A stretch of 64,000 nt of DNA from Eledone cirrhosa (Eukaryota): NCBI GenBank assembly GCA_964016885.1, contig OZ024740.1, positions 133,424,001 to 133,488,000 of the forward strand, read 5' to 3'. Below the pieces are notes generated by a model. It was not told the origin of the DNA and ran no database searches. It saw only the letters and a list, made by a program, of their open reading frames with translations. The position numbers and the translations under genes are program-made. Numbering within the stretch: position 1 is the first letter of the stretch; every line of letters starts with the position of its first letter. This document shows, piece after piece, positions 2,481 to 64,000 of the stretch.

Positions 2481-2486
2481 TTCCCT

Positions 2487-14732: not shown

Positions 14733-14750
14733 ATTATTTTCCTGAATAAA

Positions 14751-25869: not shown

Positions 25870-26400
25870 ATTTACTTTATATATTTTAAAAGAAATATCT
25901 CCTTCCACACTTTTCTTGCTGTACAAGTTTCTTGCAATTTGAGACAAAGTTGCTGGTGTGGATGCCATTTACTGCAGTCAAAGTTTTGAAGCAGAGACTT
26001 TGATCTTGGCTGGGCATTTAATGATGATGTTTTCAAAGTATTGTGTCGTTTTGTTTTTATGTTGTTGCGAAGGGACAAAACTCTTTCTGCAACAGCTGAT
26101 AAAGTGGCAATGAAATAAGTTGCATAATGAATTTAGATAGTTACGTGTACTGACATATGCCCGACATTTTTTTTTTTTCTAAAGAAGAAACCAATATTCT
26201 CAGGCTCATTCTGTACAATAAGATTTGCATCTTGCAGCGTCAATTCCCTCGTTTCTTTATTTATTTGTTGATATTGGTCTTCATGCACGAGGTTGGAAAC
26301 TTTTGGTGCGAATGTTATGATCGACTTTGGTTTACTTTCAATAACATTGGTGAGTTCTAAAGCTACTAGAACAAGTTTCCTGGTGGTAGAAATATCTAAT
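25870..26400 (-). pseudogene. hAT transposase C-terminal dimerisation-domain relic
   Basis: Across a frameshift: LSKFIMQLISLP / SAVAERVLSLRNNIKTKRHNTLKTSSLNA, matching the hAT P-x-SSA-x-x-ER-x-FS...K...RN-x-L motif. Confidence 0.6.
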
Positions 26401-27416
26401 GTTACCGATGTAATGGTACCGATTAGATTTCACCGTACTGTGTGGACATGGATTAATCGCAGAGTGTCATCTACATCGTATTTAGAAGGGTTTTTTTAAT
26501 TAAGTTAGCAGATAGTAGATATTGCGTAAGGTTCTACGGCTACAAACGATAACCTATACAGACGAAAGGATTGTGATCTACATTGTCGGCATAGATAGAA
26601 CACATAGTCAGAGATCCGGTTACTGGAAGCTTAACGCGTCGTTTCCGCCTAGTGAATCCTACAAAATATGAATTAGCACATTAGTTAAGCATCAGTTGAC
26701 AGGGACAATCACCAAGAATAACTCGTCAAGAAAGCGATTAATGTCAGATCTATAGTAAGGCAGTTACAGTAGAGGAGGCACTAGTAGCGTCACTAGATGA
26801 GGCGATTAGGATTGGCATTTGTACTCGACCAGCAGCCGAGATACTGGAAGATCTAAGCGGCTGTACGACGCAGAACTCACTCGGTTTGTTTAGATCTATC
26901 TTACAAGTTGTACATAGATATACCAGACAATCTCTACTGCAACAAACAACAGAAAGAAAGATTTACTAGCTCTGTATGTCCCTTAAGTATGTACTACTTT
27001 CGAGCCATTCCTGCAGAAGCTGGATCTGTTGCAGATCCGGGGCGTGGAAAGGCTGTGAGGACAAATTAATTTCAACACTCAGTGTACAGCATTCACAGCG
27101 GCTTATTTTAAGTGAACGTTAATTGCAGTATTAGCTAAGATAAAATATTGTTACAATTCGAAGATATAGATATTTAATGTCAGAGTTGTTGCAGGTATTA
27201 TTCTTGTTATTGTTTTAGTTCGAATGGAATCACAGTCCATATGCTTCCTTAGTGCTTTCGAAGGCAGTTTACATCAAAAATATATGTAAACTACTCTTGC
27301 CAACGGGCAATAATAGCTAATGAACACATACGAAGTAAATTATTAAGAGTAATATGTTACACGTTAAAATATAAAGTTTTACTGTAGAATATAAAGTGTT
27401 ACTTATGTTCTATACA

Positions 27417-29281: not shown

Positions 29282-30047
29282 GAATGTAGAAGGTGTGTAA
29301 TATTGTAGAACAATAAAACTATGCATATATCAGATACGTACCACTCAACAGTTGGTAGAACTGGAGTATATATAATAAAGAAGAAATTAAAAGATGGTTA
29401 AAAGAGTTACATATATTTTATTGGGCCAATTTCGAATATAAAATCATCATGGGACAAAAATTGTGTTCTCATTAGATAAAATAAGGTAACATGATATAAG
29501 GCATAATAGCACTTGTTTACAGGAAAGTGCTAAGTCTACATATGACAGAAATATAAGTGTTAATACTATAGAAAGAAATAGATAGAAAAATAGAAGAAAG
29601 GAAAGAAGAGGAGAAAAAGGAAAAAGAAAGAGAGGAAAGAAAAAAAGGAGAAAAATGGAAGAGAGAGAGAGAGAGACTTTTGTTCAGGAACGGTGTCAAA
29701 ATGAAAACGGCTTTAAATAACGGTTAAATAGTAAATTGATGAGGTGTATGTGAGAATATTAAAGATGGTATTTAAATATTAGAGGTCTAAATATAGAAAC
29801 TGGGTATATTATTTTATATTGGATACTAAAAATTGGGTTAAGAAGTGTAAAAATGTATTAATCAAATAAAATAAAATAAAATAAAATAAATATAAAAAAG
29901 ATTTTTATAAAATAAAATAAAAATTAAAATATTCTAAAATATTAAATAATAACTCATATGCATCCAATCATGAGATTCATAATAATAACACTATAAGGCC
30001 CGACGTCAATGTAAACTCTAGGCAAAATCACATAAGTAAAAAATACG

Positions 30048-30626
30048 ATGTCAAACGTAACTTTGAGGAATGCATCAAATAGTAATGTAAATCTGGAAAC
30101 TTTAGCACCTCCTTTGGTTAATTCCACCACTCCAGTTCCTAATATAATTAATCCTGGGCCACTTGCAAATAAAGCGGTAAGTAATCTTAATCGTAAATAT
30201 AAGTGCCCTATTAGAACTAATTATCCTCTTAGTAATTTCTGTCTCGATAAAAACTTAATATATGAATGTAAAGTGGTAACTAGTACCAATACCTATACCT
30301 ACATAGGCTCTACTTCTACCTCCTTTAAAGCAAGATTCTATAATCATTCTTCTACATTTAAATCCCCACTTAAAAAGACCAGCACCGCACTCTCAGAACT
30401 TATTTGGTCCTTAAAAGACAAAAACATAAATTACGAAATTTCTTGGCGTAAAATATACAACGCATCTCCATACTCCAATGCTTCCATATCTAGTGTTTGT
30501 AATTTATGTCTCGTTGAACAATTTACCATTATCTCGAATTTCAACACAATAATAAATCGAAGAACCGATATATTTGGACTTTGTAATCATAAATCCTACA
30601 AGACCTTTCACAAAGTATATAGCTGA
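30048..30626 (+). CDS. C-terminal GIY-YIG endonuclease fragment of a Penelope-like element
   Basis: NLIYECKV...YIGSTSTSFKARFYNH...STALSELIW.LK...CNLCLVE...INRR....CNH. The RT part is missing. Confidence 0.8.
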   Translation: MSNVTLRNASNSNVNLETLAPPLVNSTTPVPNIINPGPLANKAVSNLNRKYKCPIRTNYPLSNFCLDKNLIYECKVVTSTNTYTYIGSTSTSFKARFYNHSSTFKSPLKKTSTALSELIWSLKDKNINYEISWRKIYNASPYSNASISSVCNLCLVEQFTIISNFNTIINRRTDIFGLCNHKSYKTFHKVYS

Positions 30627-42921: not shown

Positions 42922-44707
42922 TATATATTGGTAAACGGAATAGAAAATGCTGACAAATTGTTCACAGTTGAAAAATGGTTTAATTAGGAATAAAAGAGTA
43001 TTAGTGATTGTATGGGTTAGTATTCAGTTGCGGTTTTAAGTTTTTAAGTTTTTACCGGTTGCGCATTTCTAAATGCTTTTCAAAAATAATTTTGAGATAG
43101 AGTGTTCGTGCTGTTTGCTTTGATCTGATTAGTTTTGGGAATTCTACCTGTTTTTATGTTAAAAAAGTGGCTCCAATTTGCAAAAATTCTTGTGGTCAAA
43201 ACAATTTTGATTGGTCGGTAGAGGTCATGTGAATGTAAAAAATTGATTTTGCGCCAAGACAGTTTTTATGTTAAAAAAGTGGCTCCAGCAAAAATTCTTG
43301 TGGTCAAAACAATTTTGATTGGTCGGTAGAGGTCATGTGAATAAAAAATTGGTTTTCTGCCTACAGGCAGAAATCTGGGACCGCTATGGGAACGAAAACA
43401 GCCCCCACTTATGCCAACCTAGTCATGGGATACCTGGAAATCATCCTCTACACTAAAGTCCTAAACAAATTTGGAAACACCCTCCACTTACACATTGAAA
43501 GGAACTGGAAGCGATATATAGATGACTGTTTCATCCTTTGGCACGAAAACATCGAAAAGCTTAAAGAATTTCACACCCTTATAAATGGGCTCAACACAAA
43601 TATTAACTTCACGATGGAATACAGCCATCAACAACTCCCCTTCCTCGACATCCTCATTAATATCCATAACAAAAAAATAGAAACAGACATATACTACAAG
43701 CCCACAGACTCCAAGCAATATCTCCCCTTCAACTCTTGCCACCTAGACACGTTAAAATTAATATTCCCTACAACTTAGCCAAGAGAATCTGTACTATAGT
43801 CTCCAATAAAAACATCTGCTACTTACGGCTTCAAGAACTAAAGGACACACTCATAGGCAGGGACTACCCTGCATCACTAATTGACAATGGAATCCAACGT
43901 GCCCTAAAACTCAGTACCCAGGACCTTAGACACCTTAAAGTAAATCAACCAAAACTAAAAGCTCTTCCATACATCTCCACACACAACCCCCTCAACAATG
44001 AGGCCTTTGACACCATCCTCCAGAACATCCCTGTATTGAAAAAGGACCATAGAATGAACCAAATTCTACGAACACACGATATCATAAAGAGCAAAAGACA
44101 ATCCAAGTCAATGAAAAACATCTTAACACATGCCAAAGTACTGCCAACCACAACAACGAAACCCACAGTAAAAAAATGCGATAGACCCAACTGTGCCATT
44201 TGCATCAACCTAATAGAGGATTCGGAATTCTATTTCAAAGATGGACAACGTTTTATAGTAAAACACAATTTCACATGTTCATCGGAAAATCTAATATATG
44301 TATTAACTTGCTCAGGTTGTCGAGAACAATACATAGGCCAGACCAAAAACAGCCTCCGCCAACGCATGACTGTCCATAGATCCCAAATCAAAATACGGGA
44401 ATACAGGAAAATACCACTGAGTGAACACATTGATACCTGTGCCGCCCAAAATCATCCCAACTTCAGAATCTTTCCCCTCTACAACTTTAAAGATAATGCC
44501 ACCCACACCCAGCGCATCAGCAAGGAATCTTACTTCATTAACAAATACGGACCCCGTCTAAACACTTCTCCCTAAGACGAATCCACAACATACACACGTC
44601 AACATACATACCTACATCAGCACACATCTCTACCCACATATAAACACAATGTCATACGTAAACACACATGCTCTATGGTGCAACACAAAAAAATATATGT
44701 GCATATA

Positions 44708-45310: not shown

Positions 45311-45778
45311 TTGTTGTGAAAGAGTCATTTCTCAATCTTGGCGCAAAAGCAATTTTTTATTCACATGACCTCTACCGACCAATCAAAATTGTTTTGACCA
45401 CAAGAATTTTTGCTGGAGCCACTTTTTTAACATAAAAACAGTCTTAGCGCAAAATCAATTTTTTACATTCACATGACCTCTACCGACCAATCAAAATTGT
45501 TTTGACCACAAGAATTTTTGCAAATTGGAGCCACTTTTTTAACATAAAAACAGGTAGAATTCCCAAAACTAATCAGATCAGAGCAAACAGCACGAACACT
45601 CTATCTCAAAATTATTTTTGAAAAGCATTTAGAAATGCGCAACGGGTAAAAACTTAAAAACTTAAAACCACAACTGAATACTAACCCATACAATCACTAA
45701 TACTCTTTTATTCCTAATTAAACCATTTTTCAACTGTGAACAATTTGTCAGCATTTTCTATTCCGTTTACCAATATAT
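42922..45778 (+). mobile_element. Penelope-like element (Neptune-like CCHH GIY-YIG), 5'-truncated, with about 430-bp inverted pLTRs (42922-43355 vs 45345-45778)
   Basis: Arms are reverse complements, each with two tandem units of about 105 bp; the RT-EN ORF lies between them. Confidence 0.88.
43386..44575 (+). pseudogene. PLE RT (C-terminal half) plus GIY-YIG endonuclease, one frameshift near 43740
   Basis: MGTKTAPTYANL, RYIDDCF, FTME, LPFLD, YYKPTD, SCH; then C..PNCAIC, FTCSSENLIYVLTCSGC.EQYIGQT..LRQRM..H...EH, E..FI...P.LN. Confidence 0.9.
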
Positions 45779-45804
45779 ATATATATATATATGTATAATT
45801 ATTA

Positions 45805-45841
<37 letters not shown>

Positions 45842-45843
<2 letters not shown>

Positions 45844-46084
45844 AGGTGCATTTTTCTTGCTTTATGTTCATACGAGTTATCACCAAGTCACAAGTAGTGA
45901 CCTCAAGAGACAAAAAGGTCCGCCACGTTCAAGAAAGAACATACATATACACACATGCATCTTTCGGTGTTTAGACTTGTGATGTACTTATATTCACAAA
46001 ATCTTCCTTATTATATGGGCAGTTTCCATTACTACTATCTTTTGTATTTCTTCTATACGCGGGTTTCCTGGGACTTGCAATAAG

Positions 46085-46087
<3 letters not shown>
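45842..46087 (-). mobile_element. R4/Dong-like family A, short 3' fragment with (TAA)n tail (45799-45841)
   Basis: Homologous to 47805-48046. Confidence 0.88.
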
Positions 46088-46134
<47 letters not shown>

Positions 46135-46142
46135 GTTGTTGT

Positions 46143-47765
46143 TCTTTGAGTTTCAGTCATTGATCTTAGTTAACTGGAAAGTTTGTTGAAATGAATATCA
46201 AGCCACTACCTGCAGCCTCAAATATTCAGGACGTATCGGAGGGTTCTTGTTGTTCCCAGCAAGCATGCCTTTTGAAGCGTTCCAAAAAGCGTGGCGGGGC
46301 CAATTTTCTTTAACCATCCCTGGAAACCTTTTGAGATAGTACCTAGTGCGCCTATGGCCATCGGGACCACTTTGACTTCATAGCAGTTCCAAATCCTTTT
46401 TACCTCCCACTTTAAGTCCTGGTATCGGTTAATTTTCTCCCTCTCCTTCTCTTGCACTCTCGTGTCGAATGGGCAGGCCACATCCACAATCAGGCACGAT
46501 TTTTTTCCTTGTCCAAAACCACCAGGTAAGGTCTATTGTGTTCCAGTTTCTTGTCTGTCTGTATCCTAAAATCCCACAGCACCTTCACCTGACGTTTTCT
46601 ATCCCCGACTCTGGCTTATGTTCATACCACTTCTCAGAATGTGGTAAATTGTTTACTTTGCATAGGTACCAGTGGATCAACCTGCCCATCACATCATGTC
46701 ACTAGCCTTTATAGTGAGTCTGGGCTAGGTGTTTACACTCGGATACAATGTGAACCACAGTCTCCTCTCTCTCTCCACAGATCCTGCACAGTGGGCTAGC
46801 CTCTTCTTTGTAACTATGGTATTTCACCCACTTCGTTTTGATGGCCTGCTCTTGCGCAGCCATTAGCATTCCTTCTGTAGCCTTTTTCAAGGTCTCCTCT
46901 TTTCAACCAGTTCCATGTCTGTGGATCTCTGAATTCAGTTTTCTCAAAGAACGTACTATGAAGTGATTTTTCATGGAGACTGCTCTTTCTCCTTGTTGTT
47001 ATTTCCTCCTTGGAGATCCCCTGGTCTATTGTCTTCTCCTTCAGTACAATTCTGAGCATTGGCTCCTTACTATCAGTCACGTATTTGTGTAGGTTGTTTT
47101 TCTCCATTTGAACACAGTCCTCTATGCTGATAAAACCTCTTCCACCTTCAGATCTCCTTAAGTAGATTCTATCGACACCACTCCTCTTGTGGAAGATGTT
47201 GTAGATAGTCAATAGCTTCCTAGTCTTCCTATCCATTTATTTTTGTTCAGCAACATTCCATCTCAGAATCTTCTTCAGTGTCAATTTCCTTTATCATCTC
47301 ACCTGTTGGTACCTGGATTCCGTTGCTTCTGCTCAATTTACCCCTCTTCATCACAATGTCTCCACACTTACTAATACCAAATTGCATACATATATCATTG
47401 CTGAAAATACGACAGTGTCAACAAGCACATCCAACCCCTTCTCACTCTTCCCGAAGAGCTTAAGATCGTCAATGAAGATGAGGTGATTGATGGTAAGCTC
47501 TCCCTTTCCCAACTTGTAACCTGCTCTCACTTCTCGCAGTATAAGGGTCAGGGGCATCAGGGCAGGACAAACAAGAGAGGGGACAGACTATCTCCCTGGA
47601 AGATACCTCTCTTGATCTTCACGCCTCCCAAGGATTCTCCAGCTGATGTTAACTCTGTTTTCCAGGACTTCATACTTTTGCCCAACAACTGTCTGATGTT
47701 ATCTGCCACCTTGAAGATCTCTAGGCTTTTGGTGATCCAAGAATGAGGCACCATGTCAAATGCCA
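46143..47765 (-). mobile_element. R4/Dong-like family B, 5'-truncated and disrupted, tail (TAA)n at 46088-46135
   Basis: ORF pieces 46218-47760 match the C-terminal half of 2595-5987. Confidence 0.92.
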
Positions 47766-47804
47766 AATTATTATTATTATTATTATTATTATCATTATTA
47801 TTAT

Positions 47805-50175
47805 AGTTGCATTTATCTTGCCTTATGTTCATACGAGTTATCACCAAGTCACAACCAGTGACCTCAGGAGACAACAAGGTTCGCCATGTTCAAGAAAGAA
47901 CATACATACACACACATGCATCTTTAGGTGTTTAGACTTTTGATGTAATTATATTGACAGAATCTTCCTTAGTATATGGGCAGTTCCCATTAGTACTATC
48001 TTTTCTATTTCTCCTATACGCGGGTTTACTGGGATTTGCGATAAGTAATCATTAGACACCGTAGGTATCATTCCTAGAGCGCCTACAACCAGTGGTATTG
48101 TTTTAGTTCTCAATTTCCACAATTTTCCAATTTCTATCTCCAGGTCCTTATACTTGCTCAATTTTTCAAATGTTTTTATAGATACATTCTTGTCTATAGA
48201 AACGGACATAGCAATTAGCAGGCATACCCTCTTTTTAAAGTCCTTCAGTATTATATCAGGTCTATTTGCATCTATTTTTCGGTCTGTTTGGATGCTAAAG
48301 TTCCACAAGATTGAGATGTGACCTTTTTCAAGTATGGGAGGTGGTTGATGCTCCCACCAATTCTTTTTATGGGGCAGGTCAAAATGCTTACACATTATCC
48401 AATGTATGTATTGTGCAGCTCTGTCATACCTGTTTAGGTATTCGGTTGGAGCTATAGAACTGCACATTGAAATTATATGATAAATGGTCTCTGGTTGTTT
48501 TTTACATACACGGCATAATGGGTTGCATCCATTTTTTATTATGTTGGCTTGGTAATTTTTGTTTGCAGACACTGATCTTGTGCCGAAATAATCAGTCATT
48601 CAGTCTCCGATTTCAGTCCAGAGATGCCAACCACTGATGGGTTAAAGTTTTGTCAACATCAGGATTGTTAGCTCGCTCTGGGTATTTTCCATACAGAGGC
48701 TTTTCTTGCCATTCCTTAGCCAGTTTCTGTAGCAGTTCTTTCTTCGCAGTTACTTTTACCTGCTTTGCTTTTTCTGTGTTTTCCATTTCAGCAGCAAATG
48801 GGACTTCTGAAATGTGTAGTCCATTACTGTATCTTCTGCATCTTTTGTAATGGAGTATGATCTTTTGATGCTTTCGCGTTTCAAAACGAGTTTGATCATC
48901 CAATCATGTGATTCCCTTAGATATGTAGATAATCCAATTGTTGCAGTTTTCAACGCAATATCTAGCTGGATTAACCCACGTCCTCCTTCTTTCCTAGGGA
49001 GATATATTCTATCTGTATCTGCCTTAGGGTGATGCATTCTGTGCATGGTTAAGAATTTTCTAATTTTTATATCGAGCCTGCGGATCTCTGTGCTCGATCA
49101 GTTGATGACATTGTAACTGTAGGTTACTAGTGGTATGGCATCGAGGCTATCTATTCCTTGCATTCAATTCCAGTAACATTCCTTCCTTATCCTTTCCCTC
49201 ATTGTCGAGTGCTTGATTCCGTCTCCTTCACAAACACCTAGATATTTGTAAGTTTCCTCTTGATCAAGTTCTCTTATCACGTTCCCCCGATCAAGATTAA
49301 TGTCTGAACTTTTCAGCAGCTTTCCTCTGGTGAACGTTGCTTTGGCGCATTTATCTAGTCCAAACTCCATTTTAATGTCATCACTGAACTGCTCCAGAGT
49401 GGATAATAACCCTTGCAATTGTTCATCATGTTTTGCAAATAGTTTCAGGTCATTCATGTAGAACAAGTGATTAATGGTTTTGTCATAGACTTTATATCCA
49501 TGTTTTGTTTCATTGAGCATTTTACTTAATGGTATAAGTGCGATGCAGAATAAAAGCGATGATAAATAGTCACCCTGAAAAATTCCACAATTAATATTAA
49601 CTTCTCCAGCTTCCAGTGATTTTGTTTCACTATTCAAAAGGAGTGTCGTTTTCCACGTCTTCATACTGAATGATAAGAACCTCCTGACAACGGGGGATAT
49701 TTTGAAAATCTCTAAACATTTTTCAATCCAACTGTGTGGCAAACTATCGAATGCTTTTTTATAATCTATCCAAGCAATTGATAGATTTTTGTCTCTATTA
49801 TGACAATCTTCCAGTATCATTTTGTTAACCAAAAGCTGATCCTTACAGCCATATGAGCCTCGTTTACACCCTTTCTGCTATATAGGAAATAGGACATTTG
49901 TTATCAGGTGGTCATATGTATATTCAGTTAGGACTGATGTTAAAATGTTATACATTGTGGTCAAGCAAGTTATCGGTCTGTAATTTTTGGGATTGTTTGT
50001 CTCATCATTCTTCGGAAGCAGAAATGTAATGCCGTTAACTAGCCATGGTATCTTTTCTGGCTCCTTAACTATTTCGTTGTAAAGTTGGGCTAACAGCTCA
50101 TGAGACTGGTATTTTTTCTTTTCCTGGGGATTTCCATTTGTTGGTTTTTCTTAGAGCCAAGCGCAACTGTTCAAC
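47805..50175 (-). mobile_element. R4/Dong-like family A, 5'-truncated and disrupted, tail (TAA)n at 47766-47804
   Basis: [56 protein letters not shown]; clearly diverged from family B. Confidence 0.92.
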
Positions 50176-50186
50176 TATTATTATTA

Positions 50187-50362
50187 TTGGCAGTATCGGT
50201 AGAGGGTCGGACGCCATGCTTTCTAGCATAGTTACGTCCCTTTACGATCTCAGTTCAAATCCCGCCGAGGTTAACTTTGCCTTTCATCCTTACGGGGTCG
50301 ATAAAATAAAGTACCAGTAATGTACTGGGTAATTGCTGGCCTTGCGCCTAACGTAGAAACAA
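50187..50362 (+). mobile_element. Main-family SINE flanked by (TTA)n
   Basis: Near-identical to the other copies; TTA tracts on both sides. Confidence 0.92.
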
Positions 50363-50413
50363 TTATTATTATTATTATTATAAGTAGAAACAATTATTAT
50401 TATTATTGTTATT

Positions 50414-53400
50414 ATTGAATGCCATAGTTGACGGAGGCTCGACTCTGTAAGGTATAGTAATTTTTAACCGCTATAACATTGTAAATTGTTTAAAACTTTA
50501 ACCAAATTGTAGATAAAGACACCCTCCTCCTCCTCGTGAGAGGGGTCTTTCTGCCCGTTATTTGGCTCTTTGGGGTTAAATAACCGCTTAATGGGGGTTT
50601 TGTGCCCAATATTCATTTTAAACCAAAAAATACATGGCTACAGAAAAGAATTTTCACAAGTCACTCTCACTCATTCCGTCTACTTCTTCCTCAATCGTCA
50701 CTACATCAGAGAGAAGATTGTCTCTCTCCCTCCCGTCTTTTTCGCAAGCGACGCCAGTAAAAAAAGAAAAATATAGTTTCTGATAGTTTCCAAGAGCACG
50801 TGCATACCGTGGAACATTTCTCCACGACGACGACAACGACGAAAAATGTGTGCGGTAAATACGGAAAGCTATTTCATTTGTCCGACGTCAAGAATAATAG
50901 CAGTAGCAGCCGTAATAACAGCAGCAGCAGCAACAGTGACAAGGAAAACAATAGTAGCAGCCACAACAGCATCAGCAGCAGCATAAACAAAAGCAGCAGC
51001 ATAAACAACAGCAGCAGCAGCAACAACAACGAGAACAACAGCAGCAGCAGCAACAACAACAACAACCACAGCAACAGCGGCTGCGGCAGTCGTAGTAACA
51101 GCAGCAACAACAAAAGTAATAGCAGCTCTGACGACAACAACAACAACAACAACAAAGAAAAACCAATCTCGTTTGGAGGTATCGCAAAGAACCTGGAAAC
51201 CATCCTTATAACAAATGAGGAATTACAGGAAGCAAAGAAGATGGTGACGAAAACCTGACACCGAGCAATCTGCAAGGCAGCCGAAATATTTTTCGAAACC
51301 CAACAGCACTGTACGGTCGCGTAATGTACATTAAGCTCGAAATCCCGTAGGGTTGAAAGAGCCACAGAGGCTCAAATACAAAAGGCCTTAGGGTCTGTGT
51401 GGTAGCGAAAATCACATATCATCTGAGTCAAGAAATATGCCACCGTGGACGTGCTTTTTTCCACACCCCAGGTGGCAAAGGCTCAATCCTTAGTGACCCT
51501 AAGGAGCGAGGAAATGGTGTTTGTACCCTCCTACTGCGGACAAAAAATTGTGCGGGTCAAACTGATCCAACTCACCCCCGGGAGGCGCCTTCTTGGCTGG
51601 CCGCGTCTGTCCTCGCCCGAATCGAGAACAAAACAACTGTACTGAAAGTACAGAAAAAAGTAAGAGAAGATTGGGTCGGCAACTCCATTGAGATGTTAAT
51701 CCAAACCAACCAGGAGTTCATCGAAGCTATCCCGGATGTGATAGACTTCGATAACGGCACTCAACTGCCCATAAGTGTTGAGCGCAAACGCCCGAAATGC
51801 TTTCGCTGTGGATCAAAGACTCACCTCAAGGCTTTCTGTAATGAGAAGACCCTGAGAAAGGAGAAAACCCCCTTCTTCCGAAACCAACACTACTGCTACC
51901 AGCAACAGGACAGGCGGCAACCAGGAAGGATAGGGTCGACCATCGTTACCTAGCGGCAGCCCTGAGGGCGGCTGGCTTTGGGCCCGTCTTCAGAGGGTGG
52001 ATCGCTGCCATGCACAGCGACATCTGCTCTGTGGTGAGAGTGAACGGTCACCTTTCGGAACCGTTCAACATCATGCGCTTGGTCCGCCAAGGATGTCCCC
52101 TCTCGTCCCTCTTGTACGTATTGACAATCGAGCCATTTCTGCACAAACTGGAGACGTTGAGTGGGGTCCCGTGCGAACTAGGATGCGGTGTTCCGTGTCA
52201 GCATATGCGTAGGATGTCACCGTAGTGGTGTCGAACGCCAAACACATCGAGGCGATCGGCACTACACTAAGAGAATACGAAGCGAAGACAGGAGCAATGA
52301 TCAACCAGGAAAAGTCAGTGGGCCTGCAGCGCGGCACATGGAGAGACAGGTCCATGCCGTCCAACAGCGTCGTCGGGCGCTGGACGGACCGATTAAATTC
52401 CTAGGGGTCTGGTTCGGTCCGGACCTCCAGACGGACAAAAACTGGGACGAGGTGACGAGCAGGGTGGTTTCTCTCAACCAGAAATAGGCAGAGAGGAAGC
52501 TATCCCTGAAAGGTCGAGCGGAGGTGGCTAACGCGTACATCGCGTCCGTCATCTACTACCGCCTGACCGTCGTACCTTGTCCTAAGCCCCGCCTGACTGC
52601 GCTGGAGCGTTTGCTCTTTCGCTTTTTGTGGAAAGGACACACTCCGATGGTCAGGCGGTCCATCTGCTGTCAACACCCGCTACGTGGAGGGCTGGGAATG
52701 CCATGGCTGATGATGCGCAGACACGCGCTCAAGCTACGACATCTCCACCTCTTCCTCGACGGGGATCAGGTATGGTCGCCGTTTGCTAGACAAGTCTTTC
52801 CCCAGCTCGTCTCCTTGACGGAGCTGCAGTCCTGGGTCAAGCGAAGACCGAAAGGGAGCGCTTGGAGACTGGAATGTCTTCAGGCGCTCACATCCCTCGA
52901 CCAATCGGGCAATGTGATCGGTGGAAACTCCAACTTGGCTTTCTATAGAGGATTAGTGGAGGAGAAGAGCGACGACGTACTTGGAGAAACTCGAGGTGTC
53001 GACGAAAATTACTTGTCAATCTCTTCGGAAGGACTTTCGGGCCGGAGCCTATGGACAACTTCCAGAAATCCCTGGCCCGGCAGTGCTACCAAGGAGCTTT
53101 GCCAGATCGGGATACACTATACAGGCATGGAGGTGCCGTCAACCGGGCATATCCGAGATGCGCGCAGGGCGAAGAAAGCGTCCTGCACGCACTCGTCCAG
53201 TGACCGAGCATTGTTGACTTGTGGGTTTATGTCGAACACCTGCTGTCACGTGTGGGACGGATCCAGCTATCAGCTGAGTCCATCGTCAGGATTTCCCCGC
53301 CCTCTTCCTTTAGCCGGGAAGTGTAGGCAGTTTTTATCTGTCTGGTGGCCATGGCAAAAGAGATAGTATGGTGGACACGTTTGAAAGGGCTGAAGACAAG

Positions 53401-53810
53401 CACTTGCCTCTTCGGTGATACCCTGATTAACTTTTTCAAATTTCATTTGAAAAGGAAAATCAGGGTAGAGAGGGAAGTGCTCTCTTCCCAGCATTTTGTT
53501 GAAAGATGGGTGAATGAAGCAAGTATGGCCCGAGTGAAAGGCCTACTCTGAGTATGTGTCTCTTAATAAAAGGTGGAAAACTGGGAGAGGGCACTTGCCC
53601 TGGTGGTCAGGGTCACTGTGGCCTTTTAATGGGCTTTCTCCACAAATGTTCCTCGGAAATCTCCCCCCTATTGGGGAGTTTTTCATTGTTAATTTTTATT
53701 ACATCCTCTGTTTTTTTTACACGCAGAAATGCCCATTTGTACCGTCCTGTATTGTCCTGTAATGTCCTTAATGTCTACTTTATGTAAACCCTTGTGGTTA
53801 ATAAAGAAAA

Positions 53811-53811
<1 letters not shown>
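50414..53811 (+). mobile_element. Tx1/L1-clade LINE copy 1, both ends present, 2.6-kb internal deletion
   Basis: 5' end matches 58788 onward; ORF1 with CFRCGSKTHLKAFC zinc knuckle; RT C-terminal half (RQGCPLSSLLY, KFLGVWF, GGLGMP); AATAAA at 53800 then (ATT)n. Confidence 0.9.
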
Positions 53812-53868
<57 letters not shown>

Positions 53869-53950
53869 AAAGTACCAGTAATGCCCTGGGTATTTGCTGG
53901 CCTTGTGCCTAAAGTAGAAACAATTATTTTTATTATTATTATTATTATTC
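53812..53950. repeat. (TTA)n tract containing a 60-bp SINE 3' stub
   Basis: Pure TTA at 53812-53866, then aataaagtaccag...aaagtagaaacaattat, then more TTA. Confidence 0.9.
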
Positions 53951-53953
53951 TTT

Positions 53954-54140
53954 AGGGCGGTGGATTGGCAGTATCGGTAGAGGGTCGGACGCCCATGCTT
54001 TCCAGCATAGTTACGTCCCTTTACAATGTGAGTTCAAATGCCGCCGAGGTTGACTTTGCCTTTCTTCCTTACGGGGTCGATAAAATAAAGTACCAGTAAT
54101 GCACTGGGTAATTGCTGGCCTTGGGCTTAAAGTAGAAAGA
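53954..54140 (+). mobile_element. Main-family SINE
   Basis: Full-length match to 30687-30872. Confidence 0.92.
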
Positions 54141-54149
54141 ATTATTATT

Positions 54150-57100
54150 GTTCTTCGAGTCTCAGCCATTGATGTTATTTAACTGGAAAGTTGGTTGAAA
54201 TGAATATCAAGCCGCTACCTGCAGCCTCAAATATTCAGGACGTATCGGAGAGTTATTGCTGTTCCCAGCAAGCATGCTTTTTGAAGTGTTCCAAAAAGCG
54301 GGGCTGGACTAACTTTCTTTAACTATCCTTGGAAACACTTTGAGATAGTACCTAGTGCGTCTATGACAATCCGGACAACTCTGACTTCATGGAAGTTCCA
54401 AATCCTTTTTACCTCCCACTTTAAGTTTGGTATCGGTTAATTTTCTCCCTCTCCTTTTCTTGCACTCTCGTGTCGAATGGGCAGGCTACATCCACAATCA
54501 GGCACAATCTTTTTTTCTTGTCCAAAACCACCAGGTCTGGCCTATTTGGTTCCAGTTTCTTATCCGTCTGTATCCTAAAATCCCACAGCACCTTCACCTG
54601 ATCGTCTTCTATCACCGACTCTGGCTTATGCTCATACCACTTCTCAGAATGTGGTAACTTGTTTACTTTGCATAGGTGCCAGTGGATCACCCTATCCATC
54701 ACATCATGTCGCCAGCCCTTATAGTGAGTCTGGGCTAGGCGTTTACACTCGGATACAAAGTGAGCCACAGTCTCCTCTCTCTCTCCACAGATCCTACACT
54801 GTGGGCTAGCCTCCACCTTGTGAATATGGTGTTTCACCCACTTCGTTTTGAGTGCTTACTCTTGCGCAGCCATTATCATTCCTTCTGTAGCATTTTTAAG
54901 GTCTCCTTTTTTTAACCAGTTCCATGTCTGTGGAACTCTAAATTCAGTTTTCTCAAAGAAGGTACTATGAAGGGATTTTTCATGAAGGTTGGTTGTTATT
55001 TCCTCCTTGGACATCCCCTGGTCTATTGTTCTCTCCTTCACTGCAATTCTGAGCATTGGCTCCCTACTTGTTGAGCATTGGCTCCCTACACGTATTTGTG
55101 CAGATTGGTTTACTCCATCTGAACACAGTCATCTATGCTGATAAGACCTCTTCTACCTTCAGATCTCTTTAAGTAGAGTCTATCGACATCACTCTTGTGG
55201 AACATGTTGTAGATAGTCAATAGCTTCCTAGTCTTCCTATCCATTTCTTTTTGTTTAGCAACATTCCATCTCAGAATTCCCGCACTGTACCTAATAATAG
55301 ACACACCTCGGGATTTACTGCACTTATGGCATTCCTACTGTTCAGATGTGATTTTAATACGCTCCTTACTCTCCGAATGTATTCAGATCTTATCAATTCC
55401 TTCAAATTGTTGTTCTTGATGTCATTCTGCCTCCAGAACACCTAAATATTTGTATACTTCTTCAGTGTCAATTTCCTTTATCACCTCACCTGTTGGTACA
55501 TGGATTCCGTTGCTTCTGCTCAATTTACCCCTCTTCATCACTAGGACTCCACACTTATTAATACCAAATTGCATACATATATCACTGCTGAAAATACGGA
55601 CAGTGTCAACAAGTACATCCAACTCCTTCTCACTCTTCAAAAAGAGTTTAAGATCGTACATGAAGAGGAGGTGGTGATGGTAAGCTCTCCCTTTCCCAAC
55701 TTGTATCCTGCACTTACTTTTCGCAATATAATGGTCAGGGGTATCAGGGCAAGGACAAACAACAGAGGGGACAGACTGTCTCCCTGGAAGATACCTCTCT
55801 TGATATTCACGCCTCCCAAGGATTCTCCACCCGATGTTAATTCTGTTTCCCAGGACTTCATACTTTTGCTCAACACTGTCTGATGTTATCTGCCACCTTG
55901 AAGATCTCTAGGCTTTTGGTTATCCAAGAATGAGGTACCATGTCGAATGCCTTTTTGTAGTCTATCCATCCCATGGCAAGGCCAATGTGTCTCCTCTTGC
56001 AATTCCTCATTACCATCTTATAAATAAGTAGCTGGTCTTTTGTACCACGGGACTTCTTTCGGCATCCTTTCTGTTCCTCCCTTCAACAGGTTGTTTGTGT
56101 GGAGGTGATGGTATATTTCCTCAGACACAATGCTTCTTAACGGTTTCCACATTACGGATAGACATGTGATAGGTCTATAGTTGGTAACATCATTACCCTT
56201 GAATCGGTCTTTCATTACCAGGACTGTGGTACCTTTGTCACACGAGATCAAGCAGTCATTGAACTTGGTTGTCAGTTTCGGGTGGAGGGATGTTATATTA
56301 TTAATCCAATAGCGCTGCACACCATCTGGGCCTGGTGATTTCCAGTTGGTTAGTTTTCTAGCCTTCCCTTTAAGAGTTTCAACTGTGATACTCAAATCAG
56401 TTTGTTGGTGTGCTTCTTCACTAATCTCCCTTTGAACTGTCTCAATCCACACTGCCTTATCATTATGTTCAACATCCTTCTCCCATATTCCTCTGCAGAA
56501 TGTCTTAGTCTGTTCCGCCTCAGGGATCAAGTCATTGCCTCTTTCTTTCCCTTCAAGCTGCCGAAACATCTTCTGTTTGTTGTCAAACATGCGGTTCTGT
56601 CTATACTGACTGACTCTGCTCTCATACCGCCTAATCTTTGCACATATTGCTACAATGCGTTGCTTCAGTTCCTCTATGATAATATTTAGCTTTTTCCTCC
56701 TAGTTTTGTACTTGATTTCCAGTCTATTTCTAGTGTCTATATTTTGTAGTTTCCCATTCAGTAGGGACTCAAGCTTTCCAATGTCATTTCTCATTTCCCT
56801 GATTTGACCACTCAGTCGTTTCTTCCACCAAGGTTCTGATCTTTCTTGTTTGTGGTTTCCTCTCGCTGTTATGCCAAGTAATTTCCTCACCGCATTTGCT
56901 GTTGCTTTGAGGATATTGTTGCATTGGTGAAGGTTCCTCGCCTCAAGGTATGGGATGACTTTGTTCACTTTAGCTGTTGTTTCTTTTAAATTTTTCCTGT
57001 CTACACATCTTAGGTTCATAGGTTTCCCACTATCATTGTTCATTTTATCTACCACTAAGTTTAGGATATCAACCAAATCTTGTCCTAGCCCGTCAGCATT

Positions 57101-58787
57101 CATTTCCTCAATGGCCGCATCTTTGTTCCAGATGTTATTTATTCAGATCATTGTCTGCTTCGGATACTTCCTCCGGTCTCTCAACCTCTTCACCTTCATT
57201 TCCCACTGGCTCGTTTGCCTGGCATAATCCACTCTCCATTTCCAACCTAACCTCTCTGCTCAGTTCCTCCAGTCTTATTACGTTAGGTCTTATTACCCGA
57301 CTCTGCCCGGCCAATTTTTGTTCATCTAATTTAAATAGACCAATCTCGTTCCAGATGTTATGCAGCCGTTTCCTATAGCATTTTTCCTTGGGTTACTCTT
57401 TAGGTAACATTGCATAACAGTTCTATTCAATTCTTTCGTCCAGTTGATTCTTGTCCCTTTCCTTCTTCCTCTTCCTCCAACACCAGCAGTATTTGGATAA
57501 CATCCAGGTCCCTGCTGCTAGGCCAGGGAACACCTGCTGACTCACATGACGTTCCAGACTCCACTTCACCGTTATTCGAACTGTTTAGGTTCGACATTTA
57601 AACACTCATATCGAGGATTGGTGAACGTATGGTTACATAACCACCGGTGATTTCATCACCCTAGTGATTTCATCCCCCCACCCCCCGTGATTTTAGCGTG
57701 GCACCATCATGCTGTAGAAGAACATAAATAAATAAATAAATAAATAGATCAAAACTTTTAAAAATAAACATGAGTTTCACTGTAATGTTTGAATGTCCGA
57801 CTTGGTTTTTTTTTGCTTGTTTGTTTGTTTTTTTTCCTTTGCGTTTTTCGTCTTTCAAGGTCAGTAACATCGGTTACTAGTGTTGTTGTTGCTGCTGCTG
57901 CTGCTGCTGCTAAGGGAAGTAGGGATTGTGTTCAAAACTGTTGACATTTGTGTTTGTTGTTGCATTTGTTTCTGTCTGTGTTATGTTCTATAATTTTTCG
58001 ACTTGTTGCTTATCATTTGGCAGTATCGGTAGAGAGTCGGACACCATGCCCTGAAGCACAGAGCTACGTCCTCCTACGGTCCGAGTTCAAATCCAGCCGA
58101 GGTTAACCCCGCCCCTCATCCCTACGGGGCCGACAAAACAAAGCACCAGCAACACACCGAGGCAATTGCTGGATCCGTGCCAAAAGTAGAAACGATTATT
58201 ATTATTATATTATAGTTTAGATTTGTCATCGTTTAAACTAAACATTTTGAGAGAGTTTAGAGATACAACAACAACATTATTTTGGTGTTGTTGTTGTTGT
58301 TAGCTGTTTGACCGAGTCACTAACCCAGTCTATTTATATATGTTGATACCTTATTCGCTTCTTTTCATGTGTAGCGGCACTACCACCATCCCTCTCTTAA
58401 GTGGTGAGGGAATAGTGGTGGTAGCGATGATGCAGTGTCGGCGGTGAGGATGGGATAGCAGTACTATAGGAATGGTGCTGGTTTGTATTTGGCTAGATTT
58501 TGTGTGGTAGTGGTGATGGTGATGGTGGCTCCGGCGGTGGTGGGCTGGTGGTGAAGTTAGTTGGCTGTTGTTTTCTAGCCATTTTCTTTTCTGACTATAA
58601 CATTTCTGGTACAAAATTAAATATTAAATATTGGAGCCCTATGCCTATTGTGATGCGTTGCCACTTCCTGGGAGTTAAGACTGATATTTCATGCTCCAAT
58701 TGTAATAAGAATTATTGTATCACAATTGTTTAAATAAGTAAAAAATCAAAAACTTACGGGAGCGATTCCATAACACTCTATCCACCT
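54150..58787 (-). mobile_element. R4/Dong-like family B, full-length but disrupted copy 3 (ORF remnant 54227-57564)
   Basis: ORF fragments colinear with 2595-5987; start ATG changed to GTG; leader ends homologous to 1162-1400 and 2250-2470. Confidence 0.9.
58018..58195 (+). mobile_element. Main-family SINE with clustered T>C changes, inside the R4 leader
   Basis: Aligns end to end with the other copies, but many central T residues are C. Confidence 0.9.
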
Positions 58788-59006
58788 ATTGAATACCATG
58801 GTGGGGGAGGCTCGGCTCTGTAAGGTATAGTAATTTTTAACCATTATCACAATTGTAAATTGTTTAAAACTTGAACAACATTGTAGATAAAGACACCCAC
58901 CTCCTCGTGAGAGGGGTCTTTCTGCTCGTTATTTGGCCCTTCGGGGTTAAATAACCGCTTATTGGGGTTTTGTGCCCAATATTAATTTTAAACCGTAAAA
59001 AAAAAC

Positions 59007-61160
59007 ATGGCTACAAAAAAGAATTTTCACAAGTCACTCCCACTCCTTCCGTCTTCTTCTTCCTCAATCGTCATTACGTCAGAGAAAAGATTGTCTCTCT
59101 CCCTCCCTTCTCTAAATGTGGTGTCGCCTCTTTCGCAAGCACCGCCATTAAAGAAAAAGAAAAATGTAGTTTCTCGTACTTTTCTTCATCAAGAGAACGC
59201 GCGTACCGTGGAACATTTCTCCACGACGACGACAACGACGAAAGATGTGTGCGGTAAAAACGAAAAGCCATTTCATTCGTCTGACGTCATGAAGAATAGC
59301 AGCAGCAGCCGTAATAACAGCAGCAGCAGCAACAGTGGCGAGGAAAATATTAGTAGCAGCCGCAATAACATCAGCAGCAGCATAAACAACAACAGTAGCA
59401 GCAGCAACAGCAACAACAACAGCAGCAGCAGCAACAACAACAACAACAACCACAGCAACACCGGCGGCGGCGGTCGTAGTACCTGCAGCAACAACAAAAG
59501 TAACAGCAGCTCTGACGACAACAACGACAACAACAACAAGAAAGAAAAACCAATCTCGTTTGCAGGTATCACAAAGAACCTGGAAACCATCCTTATAACA
59601 AATGAGGAATTAACGGAAGCAAAGAAGATGGTGACGAAAACCGGACACCGAGCAATCCCCAAGGCAGCCGAAAAGTTTTTCGAAACCCAACAACGCTGTA
59701 CGGTCACGTACCGTACAGTAAGCACAAAATACCGTAGGGTTGAAAGAGCCACAGAGGCTCAAATATAAAAAGCCTTAGGGTCTGTGTGGCAGCGGAAAAC
59801 GCATATCACCCGAGGCAAGAAATATGCCACCGTGGACGTGCTTTTTGCCGCACCCCAGGAGGCAAAGACTCAATCCTTAGTGACCCTAAGGAGAGAGGAA
59901 ATGGTGTTGGTGCCCCCTACTGCGGGAAAAAAATTGTGAGGTTTAAACTGACCCAAGTGCCCCCCGGGATGGCCCCTTCTTGTCTGGCCGCATCTGTCCT
60001 CGTCGGAATCGAGGACAAAACAACCGTACTGCAAGTACAGAAAAATGTACGAGAAGATTGGGTCGGCGCTTCCATTGACCTGTCAATTCAAACCAACCAG
60101 GAGTGAATCAAAGCTATCCCGGATGTGATAGACTTCGATAACGGCACTCAACTTCCCATAAGTGTTGAGGGCAACGCCCGAAATGCTTTCGCTGTGAGTC
60201 GAAGACTCACCTCAGGGCCTTCTGTAATGAGAAGACCCTGAGAAAGGAGAACACCCCCCCCCCCTTCCGAAACCGGCTCCAGGACAGGCGGCAAGCAGGA
60301 CAGACAGCAAGCAGGAAGGATAGGTCCGTGGCAACCATACCCACGCCACGAAAATCAAGAACAGCAGCTGCAGTGGAAGTATTAACAACAACAACAGTAA
60401 TACCAACTGCAGCTGCAACAGAGACTCCACTGCAACCGTCACCAACAAGAACAAGTGAAAGAGTGGAGCTGGTACCCCTCCCCGACCTCACAGAATCGGA
60501 CATGGAGTGTGAGATGGGAGAGGGATGGCAAAAGGTCGCAAGAAGGCACAAACGCAGAAGCAGCTCATCGTCGCCTTCGAAAAGGGAGGAAATAAATGAA
60601 AAAAGGGTAAAGGCTACTAAAAGAGACTTACAGCAGCAACACCACCAATACCATCACCATCCACACTAGCACCACCATCACCACCGGCGGCAACCACATC
60701 GCAAACAACAACACCTTCAACACCACCACCACAAGCACCAACATCGCAAACACAACAACAAAACACACACACCCAGCAACAACGACAAGAAAATAGCAGA
60801 ACCACGCGCCACCCCCAGAAAAACAAATGCACAGCAATAAATACACACAAGAAACTAATGACTTACATAATTGAACACACAGATATTTCACAGCACGACT
60901 ACATAATGCCAGCACCAATCAAAACACCAACGGACATAAGACTGGTAAGAATAGCACAGAAACAATACACAAACATTAAAACGAAATTCCCCAACGCAGT
61001 TGGTGATTTCAGAGACCAAGGAGGGACACTGAACCGGAGAGTATATTCGGACATATCACAGAAGAGCCGACGACCAGCCGAAGTGACGATTCAATGGTCC
61101 CTTCACCAGACGAACAAGTGAAAAGGGATGGAGAAACCATCCTTCCTCTACGAGAAGTAA
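59007..61160 (+). pseudogene. Tx1 ORF1 (N/S-rich N-terminus, CCHC knuckle, T/Q/P-rich tail), disrupted
   Basis: MATKKNF start, (AAC/AGC)n tract, aaatgctttcgctgt...cac...tgt knuckle at about 60181-60226; stops and frameshifts. Confidence 0.75.
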
Positions 61161-61199
61161 GGTAAGTGGTCTCTCCTATCTTTTCCTCTCCATTTCAAT

Positions 61200-64000
61200 A
61201 TGACCTCACTCAGAATAGGCAGCATAAATGCGCGTGGCTTGGATGTCATTGAAGTAGGGTCACCTGCTCAACGACCTCAGGTAACTAAACATAGATGTAG
61301 TGGCCATCAGCGAAACCAGAATCTACGAAGCACGCGTCTTCGCACCGATCTTCGGCGGCTACGATGTGTACGCATCTCCAAGCCGTCCTGGATCGGGGGG
61401 AGGAGTTGCTGTGCTTTTTCGGAGAGGTTTGGATCTCGCCATACGGACCATCTTCCTGGACCCAGAAGGTAAGTTGGTGGTGCTGGACGTGACCAGCGGA
61501 GACGGGCAAGCTTTCAGGCTAGTGGCCGTCTATGCCCCGACAGGAGCAGGGCAGCCTGATTTCTTCCGGCGTCTGGAGATCTTTCTTGGAACGTCCCGCT
61601 CCTTAGTGTTAGGGAGCGACTGGAACGGGATCTTAGATGTACGCTGGGACTGTGTGGGATTAGAGAATAGGGGAGGAGGGTACAAGAGCCACACCAACCT
61701 GCTCAGGCGTTTTGAACTGTCTGACGGGTACCGATTGGATTTCCCGAATGTGCCAATGTGGAAATCGCATAGGGTCATCCAGTTCATATCTAGATAGAGT
61801 ATTTTGTAGAGAAATAGATAGGTCTAGCATAGGCTGTTCACAATTCAAGATAGTCAGTTACACGGACCACAAATGCGTGATCTGTGTGCTTGACTTAGAT
61901 AGGCTTCATAGACGAGGACCCGGCTACTGGAAGCTAAACGCGTCCTTACCAGCGCGCAAGCCCTCCAGAGACCGGATTAGCGAACTAGTTAAGCGGGCGT
62001 TGACGGGGGCCATCGTCAACAACAAGTGGGGGTTTGCTCTGAAAAGAGCGATTAGAATAGAATCCATTAGGTTTAGTAAGGCTTTAGCAATAGAGAAAAA
62101 TAGAGCAGAGGGAGAACTAGTTAGAAGATTAGACGAGGCGCTTAGCAAAGGCATTGCGACCGACGTGCTTGCGGCGAAATTGGCCCTTGACCAATTTTTC
62201 AATGCAAAGCACGAAGGCTGCGTTGTCAGAGCAAGGGTGCGTGCTCTCAGACACGAGGGGACGAAAGCCGTTCAATGGGCCCGAGTGGCGGAGGCGCGTC
62301 GTGGCAACAAAGCCACGATCCGGTCTTTGGTGGACCACGACGGGCGCATGCTACTCGATCCCGGGCAAATGTGTGAAGCTTTTCAGCGACACTTCGCTCA
62401 GCTGTTCGGGGGCAGTGGTGGGCCGGGTCGAGAGATGGACTTTAGTGTCTACCTCGACGGGCTGCTGCGGCTCTCGGCCACTGAGGCGAAGTGTTGCGAA
62501 AAGCCGATAACAGCCGCTGAAGTAAGGGAGGCAATGACTGGCTGCACAAGGGGTAAATCGCCTGGTTTGGATGGTCTGCACTATGAACTTTACGTACAGA
62601 TGCCAGACTTGTTCGGAGGCCTCTTGGCGGACGTCTACTGCAACTGGCAACAGAACGGGAGAATTCCCAGCTCTGTGAGCCGAGGAGCGGTAGCGCTGCT
62701 GAGAAAGGATTCGAACAAGGGGTATAACATAGATAATTTCAGGCCCATAACTCTACTAAACACAGAGTTCAAGATTTTGGCCAAGGTGCTAGCAAAGAGG
62801 TTGGCGCTTATCGTTGGTGGTCTGGTGGGAGAGGCGCAGACATGCGCCATTCCCGCCAGATCCATCCATGAAACCTCCACCTCATGCGATACATCATAGA
62901 GAGGGTAGCTAGGGAACCTGGCACGGGTGGGTCCTTGATCAATTTAGATCAGTCGAAAGCCTTCGATAGGGTCGACCATCATTATCTGGCGGCTGTCCTG
63001 AGGGCGGCTGGCTTTATGTACGTCTCCAGAGGCTGGATCGCTGTTATGCACAGCGACATCTGCTCTGTGGTGAGAACTGTTCAACATCATGCGCTCGGTC
63101 CGCCAAGGATGTCCCCTCTCATCCCTCTTGTACGTATTGACTCTCGAGCCATTACTGCACAAACTGGAGACGTTGAGGGGCGTCCCGCGTGAACTAGAAT
63201 GCGGAAGATCCGTGTCAGCATATGCGGACGATGTCACCGTAGTGGTGTCGAACGCCAAACACATCGAGGCGATCGGCACTACACTAAGAGAAATCGAGGT
63301 AGTGACAGGAGCAATGATCAACCAGGAAAATTCAGTGGGCCTGCAGCTCGGCACCTGGAGAGGTAGGTCCATGCCGTCCAACAGCGTCGTCGGACGCTGG
63401 ACGGACGGACCGGTTAAATTGCTAGGGGTCTGGTTCGGTCCGGACCTCCAAACGGACAAAAACTGGGACGAGGTGACGAGCAGGGTGGCGTCTCTCACCC
63501 AGAAATGGGCGGAGAGGAGGCTATCACTGAAAGGTCGTGCGGAGGTGGCTAACGCGTACATCGCGTTCGTCATCTAATACCGCCTGACCGTCGTACCTTG
63601 TCCTAAGCCCCGCCTAACTGCGCTGGAGCGTTTGCTCTATCGCTTTTTGTGGAAGGGACGCGCTCCGATGGTCAGGCGGTCCATCTGCTGTCAACACCCG
63701 CTATGTGGAGGGCTGGGCATGCCGTGGTTGATGATGCGCAGGCACGCGCTCAGGCTACGACGTCTCCACTTCTTTCTCGACGCGTCTTTCCCCAGCTCGT
63801 CTCCTTGACGGAACTGCAGTCCTGGGTCAAGCGAAGACCGAAAGGGAGAGCTTGGAGACTGGAATGTCTTCAGAGGCTCACAGCGCTCGACCAGTCGGGC
63901 AATGTGATCGGTGGAAACTCCACCTCGGCGTTCTATAGAGGATTAGTGGAGGGGAAGACCGACGACGTACTTGGGTAAACTCTAGGCCTCGACGAAAATC
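61200..64000 (+). pseudogene. Tx1 ORF2: APE endonuclease plus RT, frameshifted
   Basis: SINARGL, AISET, VYAPT, GSDWN, LDRVF, TDH, WKLN, KSPGLDGL, FRPITLLNTEFKILAK, LDQSKAFDRVDH, RQGCPLS, YADD. Confidence 0.92.

Follow-up and report, generated by a model that had tools for sequence, protein, structure and literature searches.

A polarised pile of R4/Dong, Tx1-like and SINE insertions on TTA tracts in Eledone cirrhosa, with putative ADAR-type editing scars

Dong elements of the R4 clade insert at TAA microsatellites (PMC3812793), and microsatellite-specific lineages are likewise known among Tx1 long interspersed nuclear elements (LINEs; PMC4494074). [quoted passage not shown] Here we describe a 64-kb window of Eledone cirrhosa (the whole stretch of DNA analysed, numbered from its first letter), AT-rich animal DNA dense in microsatellites and retroelements, in which these kinds of element meet: from 45799 to the window end, ~18 kb form an array that is a real, non-random and polarised pile of insertions. 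[quoted passage not shown]

The array comprises 11 insertions: four R4/Dong pieces, all on the - strand, and two Tx1-like LINEs, three SINEs and two SINE 3' stubs, all on the + strand (tracts are given here as they read on +). It opens with a (TTA)n tract (45799/45805-45842) that adjoins the (AT)n run ending an inverted-repeat element and is the TAA tail of copy 1 of R4 family B (R4B), a 5'-truncated 243-nt 3' stub (45843-46085, 90% identical to 47805-48046). There follow (TTA)n (46088-46134) and (GTT)3 (to 46143), which form the 5' flank of that stub and the tail of a family A copy (R4A, 46144-47764) that is 5'-truncated, has a 180-nt internal deletion at 47269/47270 and is 92% identical to 2486-3647 plus 3827-4323. 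The next (TTA)n tract (47767-47804) is both the 5' flank of this R4A copy and the tail of R4B copy 2 (47805-50175), itself 5'-truncated and with a broken open reading frame (ORF) for reverse transcriptase (RT; RVT_1, 7e-20), a CCHC knuckle and a restriction-like endonuclease (RLE). The 13-nt TTA tract at 50176-50188 lies between two head-to-head 5' ends, and is thus target-derived rather than a tail. To its right stand a SINE lacking ~12 nt of its 5' end (50189-50361, 96% identical to other copies) with its tail (50362-50381), an 11-nt SINE 3' stub (50382-50392) that holds a family-majority letter absent from the adjoining SINE, a 24-nt tract (50393-50416), Tx1 copy 1 (50417-53811; full 5' end, broken ORFs), the (ATT)18 tract behind its 3' end (53812-53866), a longer SINE stub (53866-53922, 97% identical to the SINE 3' end) and a further tract (53923-53949). 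A full-length SINE (53954-54140) is flanked by a 15-nt duplication with one mismatch (53938-53952 and 54141-54155); because this duplication spans the tail (54141-54149) of R4A copy 3, the SINE probably inserted after that copy. R4A copy 3 (54150-58786) is ~17 nt short at its 5' end, has a broken ORF and carries, antisense in its 5' region, another SINE (58017-58194, tail 58195-58213). A TATT remnant (58787-58790) separates its 5' end from that of Tx1 copy 2 (58791-64000), whose ORF1 (from 59007) and ORF2 (from 61200, with an apurinic/apyrimidinic-type endonuclease, APE, and RT) are broken and which continues beyond the window, its 3' end lying outside.

TTA tracts of at least 9 nt stand at 10 of the 12 element junctions. 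The sequence-only reading of this DNA had seen such a tract at nearly every junction: the tracts that it named are all present, with 58195-58213 in addition, and the rule breaks down at two places, both near 58 kb, namely 58016/58017 (no tract, the SINE lying within the R4 5' region) and 58787-58790 (TATT alone). As 9 of the 10 tract-bearing junctions could be explained as a neighbouring element's tail, the 5' ends are the informative ones, and there 8 of the 11 elements adjoin a tract of at least 13 nt, two adjoin only TATT and one adjoins none. The 45.8 kb to the left of the array hold only 6 such tracts, which places this enrichment far above chance. The claimed strict polarity (R4 on -, Tx1 and SINEs on +) is kept by 11/11 elements (two-sided P ~0.001 if these are independent, which they are not fully, one SINE being a passenger within R4A), and both of the SINE 3' stubs reported earlier are real.

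The R4/Dong part of the array is already known and ordinary. Outside it, 1-6660 on the - strand is taken up by a tandem pair of R4A copies with a TTA tract (2486-2520) at their joint, and copy 2 retains an intact ORF of 1141 aa (2595-6020) with RVT_1 (1e-22), CCHC and a PD-(D/E)xK RLE motif, and no APE; in a structure search the best solved matches of this ORF are R2 proteins, a weak second stretch covering the endonuclease motif. Families A and B, taken for distinct from the letters alone, share 37% aa identity and are so. All five visible R4 3' ends in the window have a (TAA)n tail, and of six R4 5' junctions four are at tracts, one is at TATT and one (~6660) is elsewhere. In public runs (three contig sets from one sample and one restriction-site-associated DNA read set, overlaid on 57650-59290 minus 57650-57919, with loose-end results resting on the 24 of 1001 rows listed), other R4A copies extend 17 nt beyond 58786 into a T-rich flank (X4: 4130 reads, agreement 0.76; X2: 20 contigs), as expected of TTA tracts in mixed phase. 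These flanks and the window junctions agree with the published TAA target of Dong, which the earlier reading had named correctly.

The 5' region of R4A has features of its own. It has a conserved GTAAGT donor, ~45 nt away from where the full element starts at its 5' end, and, upstream of the ORF, a TACAG acceptor rich in pyrimidines; these delimit on the - strand the spans 58757 to ~57712 and 2440 to ~1308 (acceptor also at ~6116); the ~1.1 kb between them retain 24-59 identities per 100 columns in the middle part, vs. 78-96 in the ORF. We regard this region as a candidate 5' intron retained in genomic copies. A minus-strand Tx1 considered at 58572-58787 was rejected, the stretch being the R4A 5' end, as was a homology between the R4A and Tx1 5' regions (scores of 31-35 vs. 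shuffled maxima of 36-38; one low-complexity match was distrusted). A third, older R4-like family is present at 23393-25150 (-), with 34% aa identity to family A and without its 3' part, adjoining a SINE tail.

Judged by its ORFs, the LINE is a Tx1/L1-clade, Tx1-like element: ORF1 has a CCHC knuckle (in the ORF at 51357-51953), and ORF2 combines Exo_endo_phos and RVT_1 in the APE-RT layout of L1. Its relatives carry zf-RVT, and one of them (P0002) is nearest to L1 ORF2 structures. The protein closest to that of the window is 74% identical, two weak matches are named TX1-like, and a quick tree built from 26 relatives, with P0001 standing for the window protein, has long branches, lacks curated labels and is uninformative on placement in Tx1 proper. 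The two array copies are 86% identical (8-10% substitutions), and outside the array an old relative (21860-22682, +; ~59% nt identity) has the same kind of 3' end with an ATT tail, and a non-TTA 5' flank, which given its age is weak evidence on targeting. No further copies turned up in other collections: the Tx1 5' motif had 0 matches in metagenomes, the closest protein 0 confirmed occurrences in viral and prokaryote contigs, and the Tx1 motif 0 matches in 4 of the 8 supplement files of PMC9115989. In 80 of 114 metagenome loci, no ATT/TAA run of at least five units was found, which is uninformative since these loci are distant from P0001 (mostly 26-37%, best short segments 44-46%); two distant L1/Tx1-like loci among the metagenomes end in (AT)n (L027, 4285-4338) and (ATC)n (L032, 4430-4492).

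Some further observations concern the Tx1 copies. The internal deletion of copy 1 (~2.64 kb) joins at a 6-nt microhomology (51929-51934), a second old Tx1-like fragment lies at 26340-26850 (+), a strong splice-donor-like motif (61160-61166) stands just before the start of ORF2, and a donor-like motif is found ~40 nt into the 5' region. Summed contig depth over the Tx1 5' region (58805-59134) reaches 46,000-177,000 (X1) vs. ~20,000 at the R4A 5' end; though not a copy number, this suggests that the family is large and that many of its copies have a full 5' end.

The SINE has a B-box-like motif by eye in its head, ARAGORN reports 0 genes in it, all its Rfam matches are far below curated scores and its motif has 0 matches in prokaryote genomes; presumably it resembles the octopus tRNA-SINEs. 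Outside the array, none of the seven SINEs with a visible 5' end lies in a TTA tract (one is on -); a description of the SINEs as TTA-tract elements is not confirmed. Target-site duplications were found in 4 of these 7 and in the array SINE at 53954, with lengths of 11, 15, 16, 17 and 19-20 nt; all five start with ATT, which occurs at 2.8% of positions, and in several copies the visible tail is merely the ATT start of the duplication. One ATT-starting site outside the array (14520-14952, +) carries two stacked SINEs with duplications of 11 and 17 nt; the second insertion (14750) used the site in the same direction as the first (14520). The 5' flanks of SINEs in the public runs vary but are rich in T, with a trace of ATTATT (264, 262 and 268 contigs; agreement ~0.5, 0.51 in X1), and joints of a SINE tail to a SINE head are seen at two neighbouring registers, in 19-23 and 13-17 contigs per run. 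That insertions regenerate targets, as the sequence-only reading proposed, is supported by the twice-used site and by joints recurring in ~20 contigs per run. The runs also contain a SINE-less form of the R4A 5' region (joint 58013 to 58232), and a 156-nt contig (X1, X2) spans this region and the embedded SINE with 12 differences.

The 3' end of the SINE resembles that of the Tx1-like LINE. Its last 22 nt match Tx1 at 15/22 positions, ungapped and in exact register with the tail, a score reached at 22 of ~128,000 window positions, ~10 of which are not SINE or Tx1 ends (P ~1e-4 per position). Both 3' ends fold into a 3-4 bp stem with the loop CUUGU (~53786-53798, + in Tx1 copy 1), the letters of the stems differ, and three of the four stem pairs show two-sided changes. 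The 3' ends of R4 gave no significant match to the SINE in shuffle tests (P 0.18-1.0). On this in-register likeness and common loop, the SINE is probably the partner of Tx1, using its proteins, so that the three independent element types first proposed would reduce to two machineries. The landing sites of the SINE, taken as a proxy for Tx1, would report a tail-guided preference for a short motif that starts with ATT.

A second set of signals, on which the sequence-only reading did not remark, concerns RNA editing. The SINE embedded in R4A copy 3 (58017-58194) carries 23 T>C changes vs. 0-3 in seven other copies; the bias is strongly asymmetric (T>C 23/49 vs. A>G 2/43, P=3e-6) and corresponds to A>G on the R4 sense strand. 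CpG decay was rejected as the source of the excess, as the context does not fit. At the edited sites 3' G is enriched (8/23 vs. 1/25 unedited), a feature of ADAR editing, and 5' G is depleted (1/23 vs. 9/25, P=0.011). Depletion of upstream G is a published ADAR signature (PMC2873906). The intact ORF of R4A copy 2 bears a milder scar, as far as a comparison of three copies with lineage differences mixed in can tell: in its 3' part, 36 of 74 private changes are sense A>G, including 17 non-synonymous ones, with 10 of the 11 polarisable ones derived, and the context is again depleted of 5' G (5/38 vs. 148/450, P=0.011) and is enriched in 5' A/U (P=3e-5); in the 5' part, 10 of 34 changes are A>G and 1 of 6 non-synonymous changes is polarisable. 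The one-strand A>G clusters thus have the motif context of ADAR-type editing scars, and ADAR would be the likely enzyme. The simplest route is that the antisense SINE within an R4A RNA formed a duplex with SINE RNA, and that this R4A RNA was edited and then retrotransposed; alternatively, deamination of the SINE's own first cDNA strand within an RNA:DNA hybrid would leave the same polarity, and editing of such hybrids has been described (PMC12925331). The scars suggest double-stranded R4 RNA, if only indirectly, and not necessarily from the sense and antisense transcription of this array that the sequence-only reading proposed. No ADAR-edited genomic SINE copies were reported in the papers searched.

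These observations can be joined in a single mechanism. The RNA of the Tx1/L1-clade LINE would end in a small hairpin and (AUU)n and would also mobilise the SINE, which bears a derived copy of this 3' end. The Tx1 APE would nick the AAT-reading strand, the tail would pair with the freed end, and a duplication of 15-20 nt starting with ATT would result; we infer which strands are nicked, and how the tail primes, from what is established for target-primed reverse transcription. What is preferred would be a short motif starting with ATT, which recurs densely in (TTA)n tracts and in older tails. The R4/Dong families A and B, with their RLE and (UAA)n tails, would insert into (TAA)n tracts, and since ATT and TAA repeats are reverse complements, the two groups come to lie in opposite orientations. 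Each tail would then offer landing sites to both groups, to the other one in antisense and to its own in tandem, and such mutual targets would yield the fixed polarity, the stubs and runaway growth with no need for a tract-specific APE. Some R4 RNA would have met ADAR before reverse transcription, the edits becoming fixed in genomic copies. The sequence-only reading had held that RLE and APE endonucleases converged on the two strands of one microsatellite: RLE elements do read these shared tracts as TAA, and APE-driven elements read them as ATT, but the polarity follows from fixed tails and tail-target pairing, and by itself is no proof of convergence.

Several results weigh against this mechanism. 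The common end of SINE and Tx1 spans only 22 nt, its hairpin is weak (z -1.8 to +0.9) and the covariation is modest (reached in 14/500 shuffles for the score and 144/500 for two-sided pairs); shuffles of local alignments give P=0.037 for the young SINE and 0.019 and 0.003 for one old SINE, with two other old SINEs not significant. A duplication is absent in 3 of the 7 outside SINEs and in the embedded SINE, and the R4A 5' junction at ~6660 is not at TAA. As to editing, the array offers no double-stranded RNA partner in cis, since all its SINEs face one way, and the carrier holds no inverted SINE; the runs are without the embedded-SINE locus as one near-identical piece. Finally, both available family copies of Tx1 (n=2) fit strict tract targeting as well, and among the 24 of 1001 loose-end rows listed none is for the Tx1 5' end.

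The last points lead to the rival that survives best, in which this Tx1 family inserts specifically at (TTA)n microsatellites, which would be a new target of the Kibi/Koshi kind, and converges with Dong on the other strand. The sequence-only reading had favoured such specificity, and the 5' end of copy 1 does follow 24 nt of tract, upstream of which no duplicate of Tx1 sequence lies. Copy 2 is flanked by TATT only, a 5' boundary common to both copies; removing R4A copy 3 places copy 2 directly behind a tract, which would adjoin if that R4A copy inserted later, and alternatively copy 2 may have inserted into the R4A 5' end. Known microsatellite-specific Tx1 lineages lend the idea precedent, with a criterion of >20% of family copies flanked by the target repeat (PMC4494074). 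Against it stand the two copies within one hotspot, the old ATT-tailed relative with its non-TTA 5' flank, and the probable partner SINE, which is outside tracts in 7/7 outside cases. We hold strict tract specificity to be rather unlikely, and the specificity to be probably looser than had been claimed, the Tx1 part being a plausible new variant.

In a further rival, the LINE that mobilises the SINE would be an RTE, L2 or CR1 element whose tail is ATT-like, and the resemblance of the SINE to Tx1 would be chance or ancient, so that three machineries share the tracts. The mollusc SINE partners described in PMC5786205, PMC4824008 and PMC4758252 are CR1, L2 or RTE, and among RTE-related elements the base with which a duplication begins follows the 3' microsatellite, with a T-rich stretch upstream (PMC6007223), as in the T-rich flanks here. 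The in-register 15/22 match with the same loop is to Tx1, however, none of the R4 3' ends gives a comparable match, and duplications of 15-20 nt are long for RTE: reported lengths are 7-18 nt for the L1 clade and 7-15 nt for RTE (PMC6007223), and the SINE duplications fit the former better. We judge this explanation improbable. That the array instead arose by DNA-level tandem duplication or passive accumulation is most improbable, for although a SINE+Tx1 unit is present in two copies, whose SINEs (92%) and Tx1 elements (as above) diverge to a similar degree, and a regional bias is conceivable (all window R4 pieces on -, 8/10 outside SINEs on +, P=0.11), the two array SINEs have no common derived change (alignment by inspection), every R4 piece is truncated at a tract and at a point of its own, and public runs repeatedly show SINE tails joined to SINE heads through linkers that vary.

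It is tempting to speculate further, tentatively and without expecting every part to hold, that a Tx1 lineage swapped the poly(A)/TTTT-AA logic of L1 for (AUU)n/AAT, has a strong preference for (TTA)n and, by way of the 3' hairpin, drives a SINE of very high abundance, that a reciprocal loop with Dong builds polarised arrays genome-wide, and that antisense overlap exposes Dong RNA to ADAR, heritable edits recoding an intact ORF (the 17 non-synonymous A>G changes of its 3' part). Were this joint account true, RNA editing would be a mutational force on an active retrotransposon.

Other repeats of the window lie apart from these subjects. Inverted repeats of 453 nt (97% identical; 42922-43374 and 45327-45779), set in (TA)n tracts, flank a GIY-YIG ORF of 301 aa (43670-44575), an element which we take to be Penelope-like. 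Nested inverted repeats (27412-27657/32627-32834, 78%; 29283-29935/31121-31816, 86%) enclose an ORF of 196 aa (30036-30626) that is GIY-YIG-like by eye, with a young SINE inside.

More is added by the probable pairing of SINE and Tx1, together with the editing scars, than by the claim first made. If the pairing is right, an abundant SINE gains a named partner LINE and an animal case joins the L1/Tx1-clade-tailed SINEs, of which a 2012 survey counted only three (in maize and a green alga; PMC3472496). If the mutual targeting is right, complementary tails that create each other's targets would be a testable cause of transposon hotspots, and if the scars are what they appear to be, A>G clusters would be a DNA record of germline ADAR acting on retrotransposon RNA that can be counted from assemblies alone. 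Were Tx1 tract-specific after all, ATT would be a further microsatellite target of its clade. In a literature search of titles and abstract starts, with Repbase Reports outside its scope, we found no ATT-targeting Tx1, Tx1-tailed animal SINE or Dong 5' intron.

Compared with known systems, the R4 elements resemble Bombyx Dong, DongAg and DongBg in their TAA-microsatellite target (PMC3812793), and here have a single RT-CCHC-RLE ORF and a TAA tail; they differ in that two families share one pile, that the 5' region of family A is ~1.3 kb long with a candidate intron, and that ADAR-type scars are present. Like Kibi at (TC)n, Koshi at (TTC)n and the crocodilian Tx1 elements at (TTCC)n/(TTTC)n (PMC4494074), the LINE combines an APE and RT ORF2, a CCHC ORF1 and an association with simple repeats, but the unit here is ATT, which the text of that paper does not list (its Fig. 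3 has further targets), and may reflect a short-motif preference. As in stringent LINE/SINE pairs (PMC3472496), the SINE and the LINE would have a 3' end in common, with a conserved loop and a variable stem. As in SINEU and Tx1-Mar (PMC4494074), Tx1 machinery would move SINEs in trans; that pairing was inferred from common targets and heads, whereas here an animal SINE appears to share the 3' tail of Tx1, over 22 nt only. As in RTE-related retroposons (PMC6007223), the duplication begins with bases that match the microsatellite at the 3' end of the element, and unlike that tail-guided signature the present one is of L1/Tx1 type, with longer duplications and an antisense partner family. Lastly, the conversion of about half of the adenosines to G on one strand resembles the ADAR hyper-editing that became fixed in the DNA of avian retroviruses (PMC12925331), whereas here the vehicle of fixation would have been a non-LTR element of RLE type with an antisense SINE inside it.

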